This document shows positions 681 to 49,172 of a stretch of 64,000 nt of DNA, piece by piece; within the stretch, counting starts at the first letter, position 1; each line of letters begins with the position of its first letter. This DNA is from an uncultured bacterium. Lineage in GTDB: Bacteria; Patescibacteriota; Minisyncoccia; UBA6257; 2-01-FULL-56-20. Location of the stretch: assembly GCA_963830935.1 (NCBI GenBank), contig CAWHOC010000005.1, forward strand, positions 38,023 through 102,022, in the 5' to 3' direction. The position numbers and the translations under genes were made by a program. Below the pieces are notes generated by a model. It searched no databases. It saw only the letters and a list, made by a program, of their open reading frames with translations, and was not told the DNA's origin.

Positions 681-795
681 GGACCAACGTCCCTTGAACC
701 GCGCCCTGACTTGTGCCCCCGCGAAGAATCGAACTTCGATTACAAGATCCGCAATCTTGCGTCCTATCCGTTGAACGACGAGGGCAAACGCAACC

Positions 796-23274: not shown

Positions 23275-25415
23275 TTATTTGGTTTCCAATTGTTTTATGG
23301 AGAGCCCGATCTTGCCGTTCTCCGCTTTGATGATCTTCGCGCGGACGTGGTCGCCGAGATGGACGACGTCCTCCACCTGCTTCACAAAACCCTGCTTGAG
23401 CTCGGAGACGTGGATCATGCCGTCGGCACCGCCGCCGAGGTCGACGATCGCGCCGAATTCCAGGATCTTCACGATCGGGCCTTCCACGATCTCGCCAACT
23501 TTCCATTCTTTCGTCATGCCCAGGATCTCCGCGACGGCCGCCTCCACCTTTGCGAGGTCGACGCCGGAAACGTACACGCCGCCGTCCTCTTCGATGTCGA
23601 TGCCCGCGAGCTCGTACTTGGCGATGAGGCCGTTGATCATCTTTCCGCCGGGCCGATGACGGTGCCAATCTTCAGCGGATCGATCTTGAACTGGCGGATC
23701 TTCGGCACGAATGGCGAGATCGCCGTGCGCGGCGCGGGAAGCGTCGCCACGATCGTCTTCAAGATGTGCAACCGCGCGTCGCGCGCCTGCGCGAACGCCT
23801 TCTCGAGCAACTCGATCGTAAGCCCATCCACTTTGACGTCCATCTGCATGCCGGTCACGCCATCGTTCGTTCCCGCAACCTTGAGGTCCATGTCGCCATG
23901 ATGATCTTCCGGTCCCTGGATGTCGGTCAGCACTTTGTAGTTATTCACGTCCGAGTGCCGTCCGGCGTGGTGCCCATCATGAGTCCCATCGCGATGCCCG
24001 CGGCCGGTTTCTTAAGCGGCACGCCGGCGTCCATGAGCGAGAGCGCGGACGCGCAGACCGTCGCCTGCGAGGACGAACCGTTGGAAGACATGATCTCCGA
24101 AACGACGCGGATCGTGTACGGGAATTCCTCCTTGCTCGGGATCAAACGCTCGAGCGATTTGCGCGCGAGGTTGCCGTGGCCGATCTCGCGGCGCCCGGGG
24201 CCGCGGAACGAGCCGACTTCACCGACCGAGAACGGCGGGAAGTTGTAGTGCAGCATGAAGCGGCGCTTGCCGGTGGTCTCCATCGTCTCGATCATCTGCT
24301 CGGCGCCGGGCGCCGCGAGCGTCGTGATGGCGAGCGCCTGGGTGTTGCCACGGACGAACAAGGCCGAGCCGTGCGTGCGCGAGAACAATCCCACTTCGGC
24401 ATCGAGCGCGCGGACCTCGTCAAGCTTGCGTCCATCCGGGCGCTGCTCTTTTTCCAAAATATTTTTATGGACGAGGTCGTTCACCATCTCGTCGTACAAG
24501 AATTCAACTGCTTTCCAGTTTATCTTTTCCTTTGTGGCGCCAAATTTTTCTTTGATGTGCAGATTGAGCTCATGATTCAGCGCGCCAACGGCGGTCGTGT
24601 GCTCCACTTTCGTCGGCTTATAGATCGCCGCCTCCAGCTTGTCCGCTAGGAACGCGCGGATCTCTGTTTTGATATCCTCGTCCGGCTCCGCGAGCGCAAC
24701 CTCCGCCTTCGGTTTGCCGATCTCGGCGCGGATCTGTTCCTGGAACGCGATCAATTTGTTGATCTCCTGCTGCGCGAGTTTGAAGCCCGCGACGACATCC
24801 TTCTCCTGCGCATCCAAACCGCCAAGCTCGATCATATTGATGCGATCCTTGGAGCCGGAAACGAACGCGTCGAAGATCGGCAGGTTCGGTTCGGCAAGAG
24901 CGCTGTTATCGGGATTCACGATGAACTGCTTGTCTGCCCGTCTATATCTGCGCGACGCGCACGCCGGCGACCGGGCCGTTCCACGGAATGTCGGAGATAA
25001 AGAGCGCGGTCGAAACGCCAAGCAATCCAACGAACTCCGGATCGTTCTGCTCGTCGATCTGCAGCACGGTGACGACCACCTGGATCTCGCGGCGCATCTT
25101 GTCGTTGAAGAGCGGGCGGATGGTGCGGTCCACCAAGCGACCGGCGAGGATCGCCTCTTCGGACGAACGGCCTTCGCGGCGCACGTAGCGGCTGCCCAAA
25201 ATTTTTCCCGCAGCGTAGAACTTCTCTTCGTAATCCACCTTGAGCGGCAAGTAGTCGATATCGCTATCTTTGCGCGCCATCACTGCCGTCGCGAGCACGA
25301 CGGTCTCGCCGTACTTCGCGATCACCGCCGCGTTCGCCTGCTCGGCCAACGCGGAAACCTCTATCGTCAACGTCTTTCCTGCGATCTCAACGGAAAACTG
25401 CTTTTTCTGTAACAT
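23275..25415 (-). CDS. pnp: polynucleotide phosphorylase (PNPase), split into 4 ORFs by about 3 frameshifts
   Basis: Track ORFs 24942..25415 (RNase PH domain 1), 23945..25030 (alpha-helical region and PH domain 2), 23637..23948 (KH domain) and 23275..23640 (S1 domain) are collinear with PNPase. Confidence 0.9.
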
Positions 25416-25560
25416 ATTTTTTTGATAGAACCGCGAACCCGGAGAGTTCTATCATCCTGAGCTTTAGGAAAGATCGCTGCGGCGGCGCATTTCGCCGCGG
25501 GATCTCGCGCAAAGCTCGGAATGATATCCCCTTTATCGCGCTTCGTTAATTAATTATTTT

Positions 25561-26253
25561 TTAATGATTATCCGACTGCGGCCGCTTCGCCCGTGCCATG
25601 TACCGCGGCTTCATGATCGCGCGCGGAAGCGCCTCTATATTCACGAACTCATCGGCGGCCTCCACAAGCTTTGTTGATGCACTCCTTCGGAACGAGGCGA
25701 TCTCGACCACTCGCCCACCTGCCCATTTTACGTAATTGACCAAGGGAATATAATCGCCGTCGCCGGTCACCAAAATGATCACATCCAGGAATGGCATCAT
25801 ACGGATGACGTCCACCGTGAGGCCCACATCCCAGTCGCCCTTCTTCAATCCGCCGGCGTAGATCTGTAAATCCTTCATGCGCAGCTCAAGGCCGGCTTTC
25901 TCCAGCGCTTCAAAGAAGCTTGCCTCGGAAGACATGCCGCCGTTCGCGCCGTCGCCGTTGCCGTTGCCGTTCGCGCCGTTGCCGGATACTGCCGACGCCG
26001 GCACGATGGACATCGCCGCCGCCTGATCCTTTTCCGCCATGCGCACGTGCCCGCGCGCCTGCTGCGGTTCCACGCCTTCGCTGCGCACCACGTACGCCAT
26101 CGCGCGGATCAGCTGCCGCCCCGCCACAAGATGCTTGATGAGCTCCGCGTAGTTCACCCGGCCCTGGTACAGGTTTTTCGCCGAGTGGTACAGGTTCGAC
26201 ACATCAACAAAAATCCCAACACGCTGGTTGGAATGGTTCGTTCCCGCTGCCAT
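25561..26253 (-). CDS. NYN/LabA-like (DUF88) PIN-fold nuclease domain protein
   Basis: VGIFVDVSNLYHS...IILVTGDGDYIPLV...RVVEIASF, with a low-complexity GNGANGNGNGDGANGG insert. Confidence 0.65.
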   Translation of the reverse strand: MAAGTNHSNQRVGIFVDVSNLYHSAKNLYQGRVNYAELIKHLVAGRQLIRAMAYVVRSEGVEPQQARGHVRMAEKDQAAAMSIVPASAVSGNGANGNGNGDGANGGMSSEASFFEALEKAGLELRMKDLQIYAGGLKKGDWDVGLTVDVIRMMPFLDVIILVTGDGDYIPLVNYVKWAGGRVVEIASFRRSASTKLVEAADEFVNIEALPRAIMKPRYMARAKRPQSDNH

Positions 26254-26519
26254 TATTTTTTAAGATCGAGCTTCTTCAAAAGTTTTTCGTACGAAGAAGG
26301 CTCGTGCTTCTTCATATACGCGAGCAATTTTCTGCGTTTGGATACCATCTTCAAAAGACCGCGGCGGGAATGATTGTCCTTCGGGTTTTTCTTGAGATGG
26401 GTGGCCAGCTCGTCGATCTGGCGCGAGGTCATCGCGATCTGCACCTGGGCGGAGCCGGTGTCTTTCTCGTGCGTCTTATGTTCCCCCACGATGCGGGATT
26501 TTACTCTCTTAGTAAGCAT
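26253..26519 (-). CDS. rpsO: 30S ribosomal protein S15
   Basis: MLTKRVKSRIVGEHKTHEKDTGSAQVQIAMTSRQIDELATHLKKNPKDNHSRRGLLKMVSKRRKLLAYMKKHEPSSYEKLLKKLDL. It is in frame with the upstream ORF, with no stop between them. Confidence 0.85.
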   Translation of the reverse strand: MLTKRVKSRIVGEHKTHEKDTGSAQVQIAMTSRQIDELATHLKKNPKDNHSRRGLLKMVSKRRKLLAYMKKHEPSSYEKLLKKLDLKK

Positions 26520-26522
26520 TAT

Positions 26523-28574
26523 AAGTGATGATACATCATTATCTAATAACTTAGCAAGGGGCACGGCCACTTTTCTATAGAGATAAAGGAAGAGAAATAT
26601 GCCGCCGCCGATGATGGAGGCGGTGATCGGCTGGATGATATCGGGCATGAGCATGAGGATGGCACAGGCGATCACGAATATCCCCGGCGAAAAAACGAGG
26701 AGGAGGAGTGGCAATACCCAAAGGACATACCACGGCATGAACCATGATGTCCCAAAAAAGAACAAAAACAGGAATGGGATGGAAAAACTTTCCGGAAGTT
26801 TTTTCTTCCGCGCGAAGATGACGAGGGAAATATAAAAAATGAGAACGCCGATCACACGCAAGATCAGTTCATTCCCCGAAAGCTTGTGAAGGAGGTCCGT
26901 GCCCAGGAGGGCGAATATGGGATCAAAGATATCGAGGGTCTGGTGAAAAAATCCGCCAAGGCCGACGACGGGACCGCCGAACGGAAGGTAGAATATCGCA
27001 AAGCCCGCGAGGAGCAGTGCCCCCGCGACGAGCGCGCGCCGGACCACCGCGCGAACCGGAAGGAGACCTCCGGAAAAAGTCATGAACACCGGGATCGGGA
27101 TAAGGAGCCATGGCACATACTTGAAAAATCCTCCGATCACGAGCGCGAGGATGCTCGCCCAGCCCTCATCGTTCAAAAAGAAATAGAATGCCAAAACGAT
27201 GGACGCGAGAATGAACACGTCCGCGTGGAGATCGATAAAAATTTCCTGGAACAGGAACGGATTCCATAGGATGAGCATAAAATAGTGCGGCCGGTTTTCG
27301 GCAGGGATGTTCATCCGGGCAAGTATCTTCCAAAATATCACGAGGGCGAAGCACGCCACGGCAAAGAAAAGTATCTTGAGCGCGACGATCGCCGCGAGCG
27401 GCGTTCCGAGGAGTGATGGCAGGAAAAGAGAAAAGACCCACAACGGGCCCTGGGCCATGACGAGGGTCGTCCACTGAGAGACCGGAGCGCTCCAGATGTC
27501 CATCGGGAGCATCGCGGGAGTGGTCGTATAGGGATTGAGATGGAAAAGCGAAAAGCCGCGCGTGAGGAGCAGATTCCAATACACGTCCTGTGACCGGTCG
27601 GGAAGCATGAGGAGGGTGATCAGGAAATACAGCGCGAAGAAAACGATAATGATGGTCATCGCGGTGCGCCATCGGGGACCGTTCGCATATCGCGAGGCTT
27701 TGAAAAGCACAAAAAAATAAAGAGTCAGCGCGAGCACCACCGCAAGGACGCCCCATGGAAGCTGTCCCGTCAGCATATCGTACCCCTGCCCGTAGGCCGC
27801 GATCACGTTGGCCGCGAACAAGATCGCGAGAATGCTCCCCGCGGCGATCAACGCATTCATATGATGGGAAGCCATCCTCCCAAAAAATCGCAAGCCGTGC
27901 ACGATCTCGAGCGGAGGGTTGGCAACTTTGCTTTTCCTTCCGGGAAATCTGGTTTCAATCCAGGAGACAGGGACTTCCGTTATGCGCAGGCCGTTTTCCG
28001 TTCCGCGGATGATCACCTCCGAGTTCAAAAACCATCCGTTCTCGGTGCATGATGCCATGATCTCCGCCGCGCGGGCATTTGCGGCGAAGACCCCGCATTG
28101 AGCATCGGACAGGGTCACGCCGAAGAGCGCTTTCATAAAGAACGCCCAGCCCCGGGTCATGATCTTTCGGTACCACGTGCGAAAGCCGGTGCGTTTTCCA
28201 AAAACAAGATCCGCGGTCTTGTTTTCAAGCGGAGCGGAAAGTCTCTGATGATCCTCCAGCTCCACCGGCAGGTCGGCATCGACAAATAGATAGTAAGAAG
28301 CGGGGTAGGATGCTACCGGCTTGGCGAAAAGCCGCGCCGCGGCCCGCTGCGGGAAGATGAAGATAATGGACATGCCGATTCCGGGCGGCGATCTCCTTCC
28401 TATATCGCCCGTGCCATCGTGCGAACCGTTATCCGCGATGAGAATTGCCCAGGAGGCGTCCTTATCCTGCCACCGAGAGGTCAGGAACGATGAAAGCTCA
28501 TGGATCGATCTTTCGAGTACGGGCGCCTCGTTATGAACAGGCACGATGATCAGGTGTGAGATCTTTTGATCCAT
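26523..28574 (-). CDS. GT2-family glycosyltransferase fused to a large polytopic membrane domain; 3' boundary undefined (no stop codon before rpsO)
   Basis: The N-terminus LIIVPVHNEAPVLERSIHEL...ILIADNGSHDGTGDI is GT-A/GT2 (DPM1-like). It is followed by about 12 TM helices. The track ORF 26253..28574 reads straight into S15. Confidence 0.65.
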
Positions 28575-45821: not shown

Positions 45822-45883
45822 ACCTCACAGTCTATCGCGAAGGGAGGGAATGTCAAAAGATAGAAAAACCCTGTAGACAACTA

Positions 45884-45925
45884 GTTTACAACTTTGAATT
45901 TCTAATATACACTAAAGTTGTAAAC
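45884..45925. promoter_or_regulatory. 12-bp perfect inverted repeat 3 nt upstream of the start codon
   Basis: gtttacaacttt - N18 - aaagttgtaaac, ending 3 nt before the ATG at 45928. A candidate operator or translational control hairpin. Confidence 0.35.
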
Positions 45926-45927
45926 AA

Positions 45928-46986
45928 ATGAACCCCATAAAACAAAAGGTTTTCGATATCATCAAGTCCGAAAGGGAAGTTAAAGCGAGCCGCCTTGAAG
46001 GCCGACTTAACGTCAGCCGACAATATCTCCACAGGTTTCTGAAAGAGTTACGCGAAGAGGGCAAGATCGCCCTTTTGGGAAAAGCAAATCGGGCCGTGTA
46101 TGTCTTTGCGAATAAAGAGGCCTTACTTACTGCACGAAAAAAAATAAAGAAATTCCATCGTTTCCTGCATAATAAAGATATTTCCGAAGATATCGTTCTC
46201 GATTCTATAAAACGTGATTCGGGAATCTTCATCGACGTGCCCGAGGACATCGGCCGCATACTCAACTACGCATTCACCGAAATGATGAACAACGCCATAG
46301 AACATTCTCGATCGAGAGAGATCGAGGTCCTCATGATGCGTGACAGGTCTTATATTCGTTTCGAGATCACCGACTCGGGAATTGGAATATTCCATCATAT
46401 TATGGCAACACGCCATCTGCGGAATGAGCTGGAAGCGATACAAGACCTCCTGAAAGGAAAACAAACAACCGATCCCCAACACCATACCGGGGAAGGGATT
46501 TTTTTTACATCAAAAGTCGCCGACGCATTTACTATAAAAAGTTCTACCAAGGAATTAACTTTTAATAACCTTATCGACGACGTATTTGTCCGGGATATCA
46601 AGAATCGTAGAGGTACCAAAGTGACATTTACGATTGCTATTGATTCATCCAGAGATCTGCAGGAGGTTTTTGGTGAATATAGCACGAGTTCATACGAATT
46701 CGATAAAACCAAGGTTGCAGTACGGTTATATAAAACGGGAACTCTTTATATTTCCCGTTCCCAAGCCCGCAGAATCATGACTGGTCTTGAGAAATTTAAA
46801 ACCGTCATCTTGGATTTCTCGCATATTAAATCGGCTGGCCAAGGATTTGCCGATGAGATATTCCGCGTATGGAGAATTCATAATCCGGAAGTGAAAGTGG
46901 AGGCCATCAACACCAATGAAAATATTGACTTCATGATAAAACGAGCCCTTAAGGAAGGAGCGAAAACTCAACAGGGACTTTTTTAG
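45928..46986 (+). CDS. wHTH + GHKL (HATPase_c, RsbW-like) + C-terminal STAS-like (DUF4325-like) domain protein
   Basis: The N-terminus QKVFDIIKSEREVKASRLEGRLNVSRQYLHRFLKELREEGKI is a winged HTH. The middle region IFIDVPEDIGRILNYAFTEMMNNAIEHS...ITDSGIGI is a GHKL N-box/G-box. The C-terminus ...TVILDFSHIKSAGQGFADEIF is STAS-like. Confidence 0.55.
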   Translation: MNPIKQKVFDIIKSEREVKASRLEGRLNVSRQYLHRFLKELREEGKIALLGKANRAVYVFANKEALLTARKKIKKFHRFLHNKDISEDIVLDSIKRDSGIFIDVPEDIGRILNYAFTEMMNNAIEHSRSREIEVLMMRDRSYIRFEITDSGIGIFHHIMATRHLRNELEAIQDLLKGKQTTDPQHHTGEGIFFTSKVADAFTIKSSTKELTFNNLIDDVFVRDIKNRRGTKVTFTIAIDSSRDLQEVFGEYSTSSYEFDKTKVAVRLYKTGTLYISRSQARRIMTGLEKFKTVILDFSHIKSAGQGFADEIFRVWRIHNPEVKVEAINTNENIDFMIKRALKEGAKTQQGLF

Positions 46987-47284
46987 AATTTAGGAGAAAA
47001 ACTTGCGCGTGCCATAGTTCTCTTGTTATCTCCTTCCGTTCAATACTTCTCTCTCCACGAACCCAATCCCCTTCAAATGCTAATGCCCCCTCAGGGCCAT
47101 CCACGCTCTCTCTTGGCTCATCGCGAAGATCAATTCCTTCATTAAAATTTCCCTGATTCATAACAAAACTTTATCTCTGTTTTACTTTAAATACAATCCA
47201 AAGTTTGCCATTCCGCTCAACTCCCCTGTTTTCTCAAAATCCGGCAAACTCAAAAAACTCAATATCCATAGGGATATCAAGCTA

Positions 47285-48148
47285 TTATGGCTTGGCTAAA
47301 ACAAAAAGCGACTGGCCGTTATTCACGTCTCGATCCTTAGGAAATCCAATAAATCGCTCTTTTAGAATAATGAAGCCTGCCTTTTTAAAAACCTCCGCCC
47401 ATTCCTCAAGGGTCCGAAATCCAAATGGCATCGGAATATTTCTGCGTCCCGCGAGAACCCTATTGGCAATCCAATCAAATGCACTCATGACTTTCATTTT
47501 ACCCTGTTTATCCAGCGCCATAAATCGGCTATAAATGGCCTTTCCTTGTTCCGGTCGCAACTTTTCACTATAAGAATCCTCGAGTACAACGAGCCGTGAT
47601 CCGGATTTCAAAGTGTTAAATATGACTCTCAGATATTCTTCTTGCTCGACATAATTCATATGGTGTAACACCCACGTCATCACTACTGAGTCCGGCACTT
47701 CCTTTTTCATAAAAGTTTCAAACTCGCTCTCTGCGACAACTGCGGTTTTTATACCAAGGCCGTTCAGTTCATTCCAAGCAGGATATAAATTAACATCAAT
47801 CCCAATAAGCGTGCCGCCTCCCCTCTTAATCAACTCTTTTAGAAGTGTTCCCGTGCCACATCCAAGATCTAAAATCTTCCCATCCTGAGGAACTTCCGGG
47901 ACTACATACTTCTCAAATAATTTACCCGCCAATTCGCCAAGAAAATGTACTGTCTGGCACTGATAAAGCTCCTCGGCATGTTGCGTCGAATATTGTTCGC
48001 ACCCTCCATTTTTTATGGCTATGAATAGATCACTGATGAGCCCAGCTGGATAGCCAATATCCGAAAGAGATTGTGTAAGACTGTTCTCAATAAAAGAATT
48101 GAGAGCCGGACCAAGGACGATATCTTGGATGATATTTTCACCTTCCAT
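47285..48148 (-). CDS. class I SAM-dependent methyltransferase
   Basis: ILDLGCGTGTL (motif I) and a downstream acidic motif II. Confidence 0.7.
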   Translation of the reverse strand: MEGENIIQDIVLGPALNSFIENSLTQSLSDIGYPAGLISDLFIAIKNGGCEQYSTQHAEELYQCQTVHFLGELAGKLFEKYVVPEVPQDGKILDLGCGTGTLLKELIKRGGGTLIGIDVNLYPAWNELNGLGIKTAVVAESEFETFMKKEVPDSVVMTWVLHHMNYVEQEEYLRVIFNTLKSGSRLVVLEDSYSEKLRPEQGKAIYSRFMALDKQGKMKVMSAFDWIANRVLAGRRNIPMPFGFRTLEEWAEVFKKAGFIILKERFIGFPKDRDVNNGQSLFVLAKP

Positions 48149-48197
48149 AAAGGCATTATAACAAAGACTTGAGATGATAGGCGGCCAAAATGACCAT

Positions 48198-48215
48198 CTG
48201 TGGAAGCGGGCGGAA
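48198..48215. repeat. 18-bp direct repeat of the tmRNA 3' end (att-like)
   Basis: ctgtggaagcgggcggaa is identical to 48413-48430, i.e. the tmRNA T-stem 3' strand + acceptor 3' strand + 3 nt beyond. Confidence 0.6.
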
Positions 48216-48337
48216 GCTCACGCGCTCACTGCGTTCGCTTTTGAGAACCCTCGGTTCTCAATACTCTCCTACACGGGAGGGGCAGCCTGCCCCTCCCGAC
48301 CCCACCCCTCTCGTTCGATTCCCGTCTGCATCGAGCA

Positions 48338-48413
48338 GCAAGAAAACAAAAACAGGCATATTCGCCGAACGGTCCATCTTCGGGAGGCGAATATGCTGTT
48401 TTTGTTTTCTTGC
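48338..48413. repeat. 27-bp-stem hairpin immediately 3' of the tmRNA gene
   Basis: gcaagaaaacaaaaacaggcatattcgcc - 20-nt loop - ggcgaatatgctgtttttgttttcttgc. Located between the tmRNA 3' end and the att-like repeat, near a 25-bp perfect palindrome cgggaggggcag-c-ctgcccctcccg at about 48274-48298. Confidence 0.5.
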
Positions 48414-48415
48414 TG

Positions 48416-48732
48416 TGGAAGCGGGCGGAATCGAACCGCCGTGTAAAGATAATGCCGATGGGCCGTCTACGAGTGTAGTTTAGCTAGGCTAAGCGAAGTG
48501 ATCATATTTTCGCGCCGGGCGTATGATCGTCAACCTGGCGCTAGTCCCCTTATATAAGACCGGTATCAGTCCAAGGAACCCGGACCGGCCGATCCCGAAG
48601 GGCTAGGCGTAAGCCAGAGCGAACTTCGGAGCTGCAACTTTGGAGTTGGCAGTTATAGGTTGTGCAACAATAACGACGTTGCCAACGACTCGCAAACCCA
48701 TGGATTATCTTTATCGAAGCCAATGCGCTCCC
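48416..48732 (-). ncRNA. ssrA: tmRNA (ssrA)
   Basis: Minus-strand 5' end GGGAGCG-CATTG-GCTTCGAT (tmRNA consensus GGGGnnGnnnnGGnUUCGAC...). The 3' end GGCGG-TTCGATT-CCGCC-CGCTTCC-A is a T-arm with an acceptor that pairs with the 5' end. About 317 nt. Candidate tag ORF ...GCC AAC TCC AAA GTT GCA GCT CCG AAG TTC GCT CTG GCT TAC GCC TAG (ANSKVAAPKFALAYA*). Confidence 0.75.
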
Positions 48733-48856: not shown

Positions 48857-49069
48857 ATGGAAGAAACACATGTAATGCCCGGCAAGGGCATGACCTGCAA
48901 GTGCCCGCATCACAAAGCGATACCAGTACTCATCATCCTCATCGGTTTGGACTTCCTTTTGGGAGCGACGGGAACCCTCTCATGGAACTTCGTTGACGTC
49001 ACCTGGCCGATCCTCTTGATGATCGGCGGCATCGTGAAGCTGGTCCGCTGCGGCTGCTGCAGCAAGTAA
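48857..49069 (+). CDS. small membrane protein with C-terminal CGCC motif
   Basis: 70 aa with two hydrophobic helices (AIPVLIILIGLDFLLGA; WPILLMIGGIVKLV), ending ...VRCGCCSK. Confidence 0.4.
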   Translation: MEETHVMPGKGMTCKCPHHKAIPVLIILIGLDFLLGATGTLSWNFVDVTWPILLMIGGIVKLVRCGCCSK

Positions 49070-49071
49070 AT

Positions 49072-49172
49072 AAAAACAGTCCGTCATTGTCTCGTTCCGA
49101 CGTAGCGACCGCAGGAAGTCCCGCGGGAGGACGTCCACTCGCTCGACAACAACGGACTGTTTTTATTTTTGT
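49072..49172 (+). terminator. large structured terminator-like element (10-bp outer stem enclosing about 60 nt, then a T-run)
   Basis: aacagtccgt ... acggactgtt followed by tttatttttg. The interior contains the palindrome tcccgcggga. Confidence 0.45.

Follow-up and report, generated by a model that had tools for sequence, protein, structure and literature searches.

Genomic islands that target tRNA and tmRNA genes, and likewise phage 21 and e14 in icd, carry a replacement for the 3′ end of the gene that they enter. The CIMEs of Streptococcus lack an integrase, derive from ICEs by deletion and have att sites in common with them. MITEs are characterized by terminal inverted repeats of their own and by short duplications of fixed length. 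The R2 retrotransposon has its own reverse transcriptase and endonuclease, and its 5′ ribozyme, which belongs to a known class, contains 28S rRNA sequence in helix P1. Finally, the folded attP of CTX phage and IMEX, the attC site of integrons and the bridge RNA of IS110 operate with defined recombinases and with fixed targets or programmable loops. For R2 see also PMC3414825; the nearest paper found concerns group I introns in the anticodon loops of Patescibacteria tRNA genes (PMC13011429). No published description of the family reported here was found in the literature searched.

The locus described here lies in the window, that is, the whole 64-kb stretch of DNA that was analysed. It comprises a tmRNA (ssrA) gene on the minus strand followed by an insert, and this insert is an intact member of a small protein-less insertion family, about 150-250 nt in size, of Patescibacteria (CPR). 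ARAGORN places the tmRNA at 48415-48732 (-) with the tag peptide ANSKVAAPKFALAYA, and the Rfam model RF00023 matches 48413-48732 (-) with 107.5 bits (E 4.9e-41) over model positions 1-374. The model is thus covered end to end upstream of the insert, so the host gene is not interrupted. An earlier sequence-only reading of the window had recognised ssrA on the minus strand and had named both of these checks, which confirm it. The same reading had singled out the tag for its ending in ...ALAYA. This ending is present but not unusual for the clade, as the tag of the related genome locus L008 is identical and those of other relatives end in ...FAFA, ...LAYA or ...FAYA. The parts of the locus are as follows.

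48413-48732, minus strand: complete, uninterrupted tmRNA (ssrA) gene (ARAGORN and Rfam RF00023).
48413-48432, minus strand: B1, the tmRNA 3′ end in current use, tRNA-like positions 57-76 and first copy of the repeat (exact 18-mer; numbering from the Rfam alignment).
48198-48412, minus strand: whole inserted unit of 215 bp, made up of X, antiB, core and B2 (synteny with 10 empty relatives; homologous insert in L008).
48336-48415, minus strand: X, a long hairpin of about 30 bp whose loop has 19 nt, its 5′ arm being rich in A and its 3′ arm in T (inverted repeats, RNAfold).
48313-48335, minus strand: antiB, tmRNA positions 53 to about 76 copied in antisense, CTCGATGCAGACGGGAATCGAAC (read from the sequence).
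48216-48312, minus strand: conserved core domain, with J1/2, P2, GUGUAGGAG, P3, P4 and the ...GUGA end (covariance model R1).
48299-48312, minus strand: J1/2 of the core, G-rich.
48274-48298, minus strand: P2 stem-loop of the core, the same as the 25-bp palindrome noticed in the sequence-only reading (covariation).
48266-48274, minus strand: core strand GUGUAGGAG.
48243-48259, minus strand: P3 stem-loop, GAGAACCGAGGGUUCUC, with a nearly invariant apical part (covariation).
48222-48238, minus strand: P4, GCGAACGCAGUGAGCGC, a short hairpin with A.G/A.A mismatches inside it (RNAfold).
48198-48217, minus strand: B2, the second tmRNA 3′ end, a displaced copy whose first part pairs with antiB as P1 (exact 18-mer, P1 statistics).

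The repeat is an exact 18-mer, CTGTGGAAGCGGGCGGAA, located at 48198-48215 and 48413-48430, 215 nt apart. These are its only two matches in the 64-kb window, even when up to 3 mismatches are allowed; the corresponding value for shuffles was 0.16, and none of 100 shuffles gave two. In tRNA numbering the 18-mer begins at T-loop base T59 and ends 3 nt beyond the discriminator, and the repeat reaches 20 nt (48198-48217 and 48413-48432) with one mismatch (A58 to C). The exact 18-bp copy of the tmRNA 3′ end had already been noticed in the sequence-only reading, and it is found at these two sites and nowhere else in the window. The search for further copies of the 18-mer and for a matching integrase, which that reading had proposed, covered the window and yielded neither a third copy nor, among the 30 ORFs scanned, an integrase. 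The arms of hairpin X (48336-48355 and 48396-48415) are 100% complementary, and the stem, which overlaps the final 3 nt of the B1 repeat, extends in RNAfold to about 30 bp with one bulge. A hairpin with a 27-bp stem at 48338-48413 had been proposed before; the hairpin exists, and only the length of its stem was set slightly short. The perfect 25-bp palindrome, CGGGAGGGGCAG-c-CTGCCCCTCCCG (12+1+12, 48274-48298), is present as described and is unique within the window.

The antisense segment antiB (48313-48335) and the conserved core were both overlooked in the sequence-only reading. The T-loop and T-stem portion of antiB is perfect and its acceptor portion has decayed, with 8/11 matches. A covariance model of the core, R1, was built from 45 copies; it gives 97.6 bits in the window (E 1.7e-22, 48208-48319), and this is its sole match there with E <0.1. 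The z-score of the core fold is -3.2, and the P4 subtype of the window copy is common to L021, L036, L047 and L081. Only two ORFs were called over the insert (90 and 97 aa, plus strand), and both run into the tmRNA gene.

Related loci were retrieved with a 22-mer from the tmRNA 3′ end. They come from 11 genomes, all of Patescibacteria (Paceibacterota, Parcubacteria, Minisyncoccia and Saccharibacteria). The tmRNA and the genes on its 5′ side show 75-85% identity between the window and these relatives, and in 10 relatives the homology to the window ends at 48414/48415, the tmRNA's 3′ end. The orthologous tmRNA site is empty in 10 of the 11 related genome loci and is occupied only in L008 (Paceibacterota). 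The L008 insert is homologous to that of the window, has the same architecture and the same tmRNA site, and ends with a 16-nt repeat of the tmRNA 3′ end. To either side of the insert, L008 can be aligned with the empty locus L005, and the downstream flank is common to both loci. Two metagenome loci, L031 and L033, are also occupied at the tmRNA, and the flank past the second copy in L031 matches the one that directly follows the tmRNA in the empty L007. The flank beyond B2 corresponds to the post-tmRNA flank of empty sites. Three pairs of empty and occupied sites with exact junctions were obtained in all, namely L005/L008, L036/L078 at a tRNA-Thr gene and L042/L034 at a tRNA-Arg gene. Orthologous sites either have or lack the unit, and its boundaries there are exact. 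That the duplicated tmRNA 3′ end marks an insertion, as the sequence-only reading had proposed, is borne out by the site being empty in 10 relatives and occupied in L008; the comparison across relatives that it had suggested reveals a locus polymorphic for occupied and empty sites. The copy in the window is young and intact, and the CPR element that it represents is apparently undescribed.

Hairpin X appears terminator-like in form. It has a long stem and a T-rich 3′ arm (CTGTTTTTGTTTTCTTG), with no T run after the stem (48336-48415), and a simple terminator scan misses it because its loop is longer than 8 nt. The idea that X is a terminator native to the host gene was rejected: the empty L005 and L007 have no such hairpin, and their flanks match the post-B2 flanks of L008 and L031.

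A motif derived from the alignment of the window with L008 (GTGTAGGAG...GAACCGAGGGTTC) was found in at least 100 metagenome stretches and in 0 viral contigs. Loci L030, L034, L044, L062 and L082 come from Hainich groundwater sets. The R1 model gave 119 matches in 653 kb of retrieved loci, with up to four per 10 kb. Among the matches listed, 67 of the 91 assessable distinct cores are located at most 200 nt downstream of a tRNA or tmRNA gene, on the same strand, and the host genes of these 67 cores comprise 18 tRNA isotypes and the tmRNA. A few copies sit behind protein genes, with a recoded replacement of the gene end. The repeats measure 6-41 nt overall, with modes at 15-18 nt (15-22 nt at tRNAs, 37-41 nt at protein genes). 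Their distal end varies, from positions 74 to 80 and beyond, into the flank, which weakens a retroviral-PBS-like origin, where the repeat would be the last 18 nt of the mature tRNA.

Among the matches listed, the nearest relatives of the window core are copies behind tRNA-Arg (L081, 87.8% over 115 nt). The L008 copy, found at the orthologous tmRNA, is not the closest one; its subtype has an additional hairpin. Seven pairs of cores are at least 90% identical and stand behind different tRNA species; their hairpins are unrelated and each antiB is matched to its own host, and these near-identical pairs with retargeted antiB hint at an active copying step. Copies on the same contig are often as divergent as unrelated ones (median 0.67 vs 0.64), so concerted evolution of the cores within a genome is not general. 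The data as a whole fit neither a recent burst nor general gene conversion. We are confident of the existence of the family, of its anatomy and of its site polymorphism, and the family is now defined by a model, by its boundaries and by the empty/occupied pairs.

In the sense of the host gene, the order of the parts is B1, usually hairpin X, antiB, the core of about 100 nt, B2 and the native flank. The core comprises the G-rich GGGUCGG, P2, the invariant CCGUGUAGGAG, P3 (GAACCGAGGGUUC), a variable P4 and the ...GUGA end, with GGGUCGG, CCGUGUAGGAG, GAACCGAGGGUUC and ...GUGA as invariant joining strands. Over 103 distinct sequences, P2 is paired in 96.1% and 6 of its 7 pairs change on both sides, with GC-to-AU exchanges; the corresponding values for P3 are 98.2% and 6 of 9 pairs. 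When both helices are pooled, pairing reaches 97.4% and double-change cells number 335, compared with 107 in shuffles; 0 of 500 shuffles attained 335. Slid controls for P2 and P3 gave pairing of 38-71% only. The core is a selected single-strand fold with covarying helices. The palindrome, which had been regarded as a candidate binding site for a recombinase or regulator, is instead the covarying helix P2, whose sequence varies while its pairing is kept. A loop that takes part in a proposed UCGG:CCGA tertiary pairing is invariant across the family.

The closing helix, P1, is formed by antiB and the start of B2. It contains a tandem G.A/A.G, with the G.A in 54 of 54 copies and the A.G in 51 of 54, and its outer pairs lie above all 500 partner shuffles. 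The core shows a strand preference, with 22 G.U pairs against 7 A.C; together with the G.A pairs of P1, this excess indicates that the fold is on the strand with host-gene sense. The base that follows ...GUGA covaries with base 57 of the host T-loop (C-G in 39 cases, U-A in 8), and this switch places the junction between the element and B2 at position 57. The antisense segment fits its cognate host gene better than non-cognate genes in 56 of 67 cases, T-loop variants included; its match to its own host can reach 17 nt, even where the cores compared are 90-94% identical. Copies at sites other than tRNA genes (L013, L102, L104 and L106) have a site-specific P1 of 11 bp built from the sequence of the host gene, and the T-loop-derived inner 10 bp of P1 recur in tRNA-associated copies only. 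The acceptor part of B2 often decays (L030, L056, L066, L074) while its P1 part is kept, from which it follows that B2 is not a spare exon.

The copies at protein genes bear on the role of the proximal repeat. In L106 the element lies in the end of gyrB and both copies of the repeat encode MGEEVEPRKKFIQTHAKAAKNIDI up to the stop; the first 41 nt of the gyrB copies show 0 differences and the last 11 codons show 11 synonymous differences. The C-terminus of GAPDH in L087 is duplicated in the same pattern. The recoding in both genes indicates that the proximal copy is a working replacement of the gene end, borne by the element. The hairpin is optional, as antiB abuts the tRNA end in L078 and L034. 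Where it is present, B1, the hairpin and antiB make up a long palindrome; in L072, L081 and L041 this is almost perfect along 33-45 bp. These long fold-back palindromes look like products of snap-back synthesis, not of simple recombination, and along with the matched antiB they point to a copying step, either snap-back or template switching. Some hairpins hold a second conserved module, and this module is found alone behind tRNA-Cys in L046.

We searched for an enzyme, a known family and a source of the element. In 30 ORFs of the 64-kb window, all neighbours of the insert included, Pfam scans detected no integrase, transposase or RT domain; the window ORFs include RecA, FtsK, GyrA, ClpB and other housekeeping genes. 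Clustering of the ORFs within 3.5 kb of about 100 copies revealed no recurrent protein partner, the best neighbour cluster being near 7 of about 100 loci and reflecting housekeeping synteny. The tmRNA 18-mer is absent from 2.9 million viral contigs, and the insert has no blastn match in phage or plasmid collections. A phage or plasmid origin was rejected on these grounds, with 0 viral-contig matches for both the 18-mer and the core motif. At the gathering threshold, the Rfam 15 families detect the tmRNA and tRNA only, and the element matches none of them. The best sub-threshold match, to Clostridiales-2, has 23.7 bits for a threshold of 58.6 and was not reproduced in L062 and L087. None of the HDV, hammerhead, twister, pistol, hatchet, HEARO and IS605-orfB RNA models of Rfam 15 reach threshold, in agreement with inspection by eye, where HDV-like, hammerhead and twister folds found no match. 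RF00028 (group I) has no match even at E<=10. The layout of sense, antisense and sense target copies around a conserved fold may thus be without a described counterpart, none having been found in Rfam 15 or in the literature searched.

Two further known designs were considered and rejected. A group I intron, or a trans-splicing ribozyme with a spare 3′ exon, would fit the guide-like geometry, but the core is too small for this, an A precedes the junction, the next base follows host position 57, and the distal copy decays in the four loci named above. For a guide RNA of the TnpB/IscB type, no common target-adjacent motif was found, and an occupied site retains an intact target and hence would have no immunity.

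We therefore favour, with a probability of roughly 0.55, a non-autonomous element that codes for a structured RNA, replaces the 3′ end of its target and uses the duplicated gene end to spread by recombination. The core would act as RNA, transcribed by read-through from the tmRNA promoter, and RNA is its probable form rather than folded single-stranded DNA. Passage between genomes would need no enzyme of the element's own. Of the two homology arms, the left would be the host gene and the right the short 3′ fragment that was displaced (B2); DNA uptake followed by RecA-type recombination, or such recombination between paralogous tRNA genes, would place a copy in any empty gene with the same 3′ end. 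The element could be lost by recombination between B1 and B2. Two tRNA-Gly genes on one contig, L029 and L055, carry units that differ once, inside B2, and their identity stops exactly at the end of B2. This is the pattern expected from a double crossover in which the tRNA body is the left arm and the 20-nt B2 the right one, which favours recombinational spread. We are moderately confident of spread by recombination alone. Homologous recombination accounts for spread among genes with a common 3′ end, and not for retargeting. As a tentative possibility, the core might be a new functional RNA class, catalytic or serving as guide or scaffold for an enzyme, that uses the antisense segment to steer its insertion into tRNA, tmRNA and some protein genes at their 3′ ends, with snap-back rewriting the matched antisense/sense pair each time.

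Other explanations were weighed against this element that replaces the 3′ end of its target. Guided integration would rely on an antisense guide, or on a P1 that mimics the duplex target, and on a host or trans-acting recombinase or nuclease from elsewhere that performs the insertion, in a manner akin to IS110 bridge RNA, the folded attP of CTX phage and IMEX, or integron attC. Such a process would suit the match of up to 17 nt between the antisense segment and its own host even among cores 90-94% identical, the core|B2 junction constant at tRNA position 57, the rebuilding of the target by P1 as a duplex with a conserved 2-nt mismatch, and helices that fit one strand only. We consider it unlikely nonetheless, as no candidate enzyme is found in the 64-kb window or beside any copy examined, a guide borne by the element needs rewriting for each new target, for which the model gives no route, and the intact target (B1) that remains at occupied sites provides no obvious immunity. 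The unit could also be a cis-acting RNA module of the host, active in 3′-end processing of tRNA and tmRNA precursors, in termination or in quality control through a switch between B1:antiB and antiB:B2 pairing, its spread being secondary. Function alone would not generate the duplications, however; most tRNA genes and 10 of the 11 related tmRNA loci manage without the unit, and it also occurs behind gyrB and GAPDH. A host module is thus quite improbable, in spite of the core being under strong purifying selection in genomes that are very compact, the placing of copies behind host genes always on the same strand and directly 3′, the other three tRNA genes of the window, which have no comparable A/T-armed hairpins in an RNAfold comparison, and a distal B2 that decays with its P1 part retained.

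A SINE-like retroelement was also considered, in which the core RNA would be copied into nicked tRNA genes by an RT acting in trans (target-primed reverse transcription), snap-back priming giving rise to the antisense copy. The recoded gene end that forms the proximal copy in L106 is an impossible product of target-site duplication, an A-rich 3′ tail is absent, and no RT is found among the 30 scanned ORFs of the window or among recurrent neighbours; moreover, one paper reports group II introns as absent from 95 complete Patescibacteria genomes (PMC13011429). These points make a SINE-like origin very improbable, even though it would explain the variable repeat length (15-22 nt at tRNAs, 37-41 nt at protein genes), the long near-perfect fold-back palindromes that begin at the gene 3′ end, and the microhomology between the T-loop (TTCGA) and the core ends (CGAA..., ...GUGA/GA). 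The sequence-only reading had instead suggested the attL/attR sites of an integrase island deleted to 200 bp, or a tandem att arrangement, with the palindrome as candidate recombinase site. The same 200-nt content in the same order is found at more than 100 sites and at 18 tRNA isotypes, which random deletion of islands cannot yield. As a unit of about 150-250 nt that recurs intact, it is no residue of an excised or deleted island, and insertion mediated by an integrase is not supported, such a gene being found neither among the 30 scanned ORFs of the window nor near other copies. The sequence of the palindrome varies with its pairing kept, like an RNA helix, and neither the 18-mer in the viral contigs nor the insert in the phage and plasmid collections found a match. 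T-loop-type integrases reportedly leave direct repeats that start in the T-loop, as the tmRNA 3′-end repeat does here, and beyond the second copy lies a low-GC segment with a methyltransferase gene; an att scar is extremely unlikely all the same. Of the options in that reading, the small non-autonomous integrative element comes closest.

The tiny, dense genomes of CPR bacteria (Patescibacteria) keep many copies of the unit under clear structural selection, and this retention suggests either an RNA with a real job or very efficient hitch-hiking on tRNA genes. The design of the element is possibly new and may show how movement can occur with the target gene kept working and with no encoded protein. 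Should the core indeed be a functional RNA that directs its own insertion, it would amount to a mobile RNA gene found in CPR bacteria alone, protein-less in cis and able to retarget itself. The partial tRNA and tmRNA duplicates made by these units resemble att sites and would be misread as island scars or pseudo-tRNAs in CPR annotation.

Compared with the elements that carry a replacement 3′ end, the unit likewise has a direct repeat of the gene end that brackets the insert, with the proximal copy completing the gene and the distal copy being the displaced original. The copies in protein genes differ synonymously in those elements, and so they do here in L106. The unit differs from them in having no integrase, no cargo and only about 200 nt, in its extra antisense copy of the target and conserved folded core, and in that related cores serve many target genes. 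Set against a tyrosine-integrase island, it has the direct repeat of the gene end but no integrase gene, and its 215 bp are too short. Like CIMEs, the element is non-autonomous and bounded by target repeats, but no parent element is seen in the 64-kb window and what it contains is no remnant of a deletion but a conserved RNA-like domain. With MITE-like repeats (Correia, RUP, ERIC, REP/BIME) it has in common that it is small, multi-copy, non-coding, structured and located at gene ends. Unlike the terminal inverted repeats shared by MITEs, its closing helix is host-specific and built from the target (11 bp from the CDS in L013), and its duplication is not of fixed length but varies over 6-41 nt.

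A group I intron in the T-loop of a Clostridium tmRNA (Williams 2002, as cited in PMC13011429) resembles the unit in having its junction in the T-loop, and the antisense segment here has the geometry of an internal guide that spans the junction. In contrast to that intron, the tmRNA is here complete upstream, no group I model matches, the core measures about 100 nt without a terminal G, and the distal copy decays in many members. As for R2, the likeness lies in a mobile element that would be co-transcribed with a structural-RNA gene, transcription being inferred here, and in a folded RNA that borrows target sequence for a helix; the difference is that no known ribozyme model matches the element. 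Finally, as with folded att sites and bridge RNA, the target in sense and antisense on one strand could present either a duplex or a guide.

Whole units occur in tandem behind a single tRNA in two of the fetched loci (L037, 58-322; L109, 8114-8555). The L037 tandem has a period of 151 nt, with 98% identity between its cores. Such tandem units are the product that would be expected from unequal recombination between the B repeats, the sense copies of the gene 3' end that delimit the unit.

The tmRNA element of the window is followed by a segment, 45850-48200, with a GC content of 39-46%, whereas that of the surroundings is 52-63%. Two genes lie within this low-GC stretch:

45928-46986, plus strand, HTH/HATPase/DUF4325 gene
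47285-48148, minus strand, SAM-methyltransferase gene

At 47200-47290 lies a block of approximately 90 nt that has counterparts with 83-88% identity in six related loci, where they are found downstream of the tmRNA at distances that differ from locus to locus. By-eye comparison places similar sequence about 60 nt past the tmRNA in L004 and L007, two related loci whose tmRNA site is empty. On these comparisons, the methyltransferase gene looks like a further insertion at the tmRNA hot spot.

A second conserved module is observed at the apex of some of the X hairpins, the long hairpins that follow the gene 3' end in the unit (L023, L075, L111, L015, L081 and L027). Its consensus is about CTCTCGGCACC-TACG-TGCCTCCGAGAG, with an adjacent hairpin, and it is bracketed by perfect inverted arms that are site-specific. 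Behind the tRNA-Cys of L046, the module is present without the core. The module could be a small element in its own right, one targeting hairpin centres.

ORF calls appear split or fused at 23945-28574: PNPase domains are found in a 361-aa ORF (23945-25030), upstream of which lies a separate ORF of 230 aa, and a 773-aa call (26253-28574) fuses ribosomal protein S15 to a glycosyltransferase domain. Frameshifts or intervening sequences could account for this, as could an artefact of the ORF calling. In L106, where the unit lies at the end of gyrB, an in-frame stop at about 464 closes the gyrB frame upstream of the element, only 76 codons before the gyrB end; an intein, an intron or a frameshift may interrupt the gene further upstream, or there may be a flaw in the contig.

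tRNA-Arg gcg (713-785, minus strand) has a downstream trailer, at about 590-712, that contains GAAGTTCGGAGGAAGAAT and GGAGAAACTCGAAC; these two sequences resemble sense and antisense pieces of the T-arm of this tRNA. The covariance model of the core, built from 45 copies, found no core in this trailer, and the T-arm-like pieces could be due to chance or be the remnant of a decayed element. A search of the window with the same model likewise found no core attached to an inverted repeat at 49068-49168, which comes after a small LiaF-like ORF (48857-49069). Its 24-nt arms are 92% complementary, A-rich then T-rich (AAATAAAAACAGTCCG...), a hairpin style like that of X.
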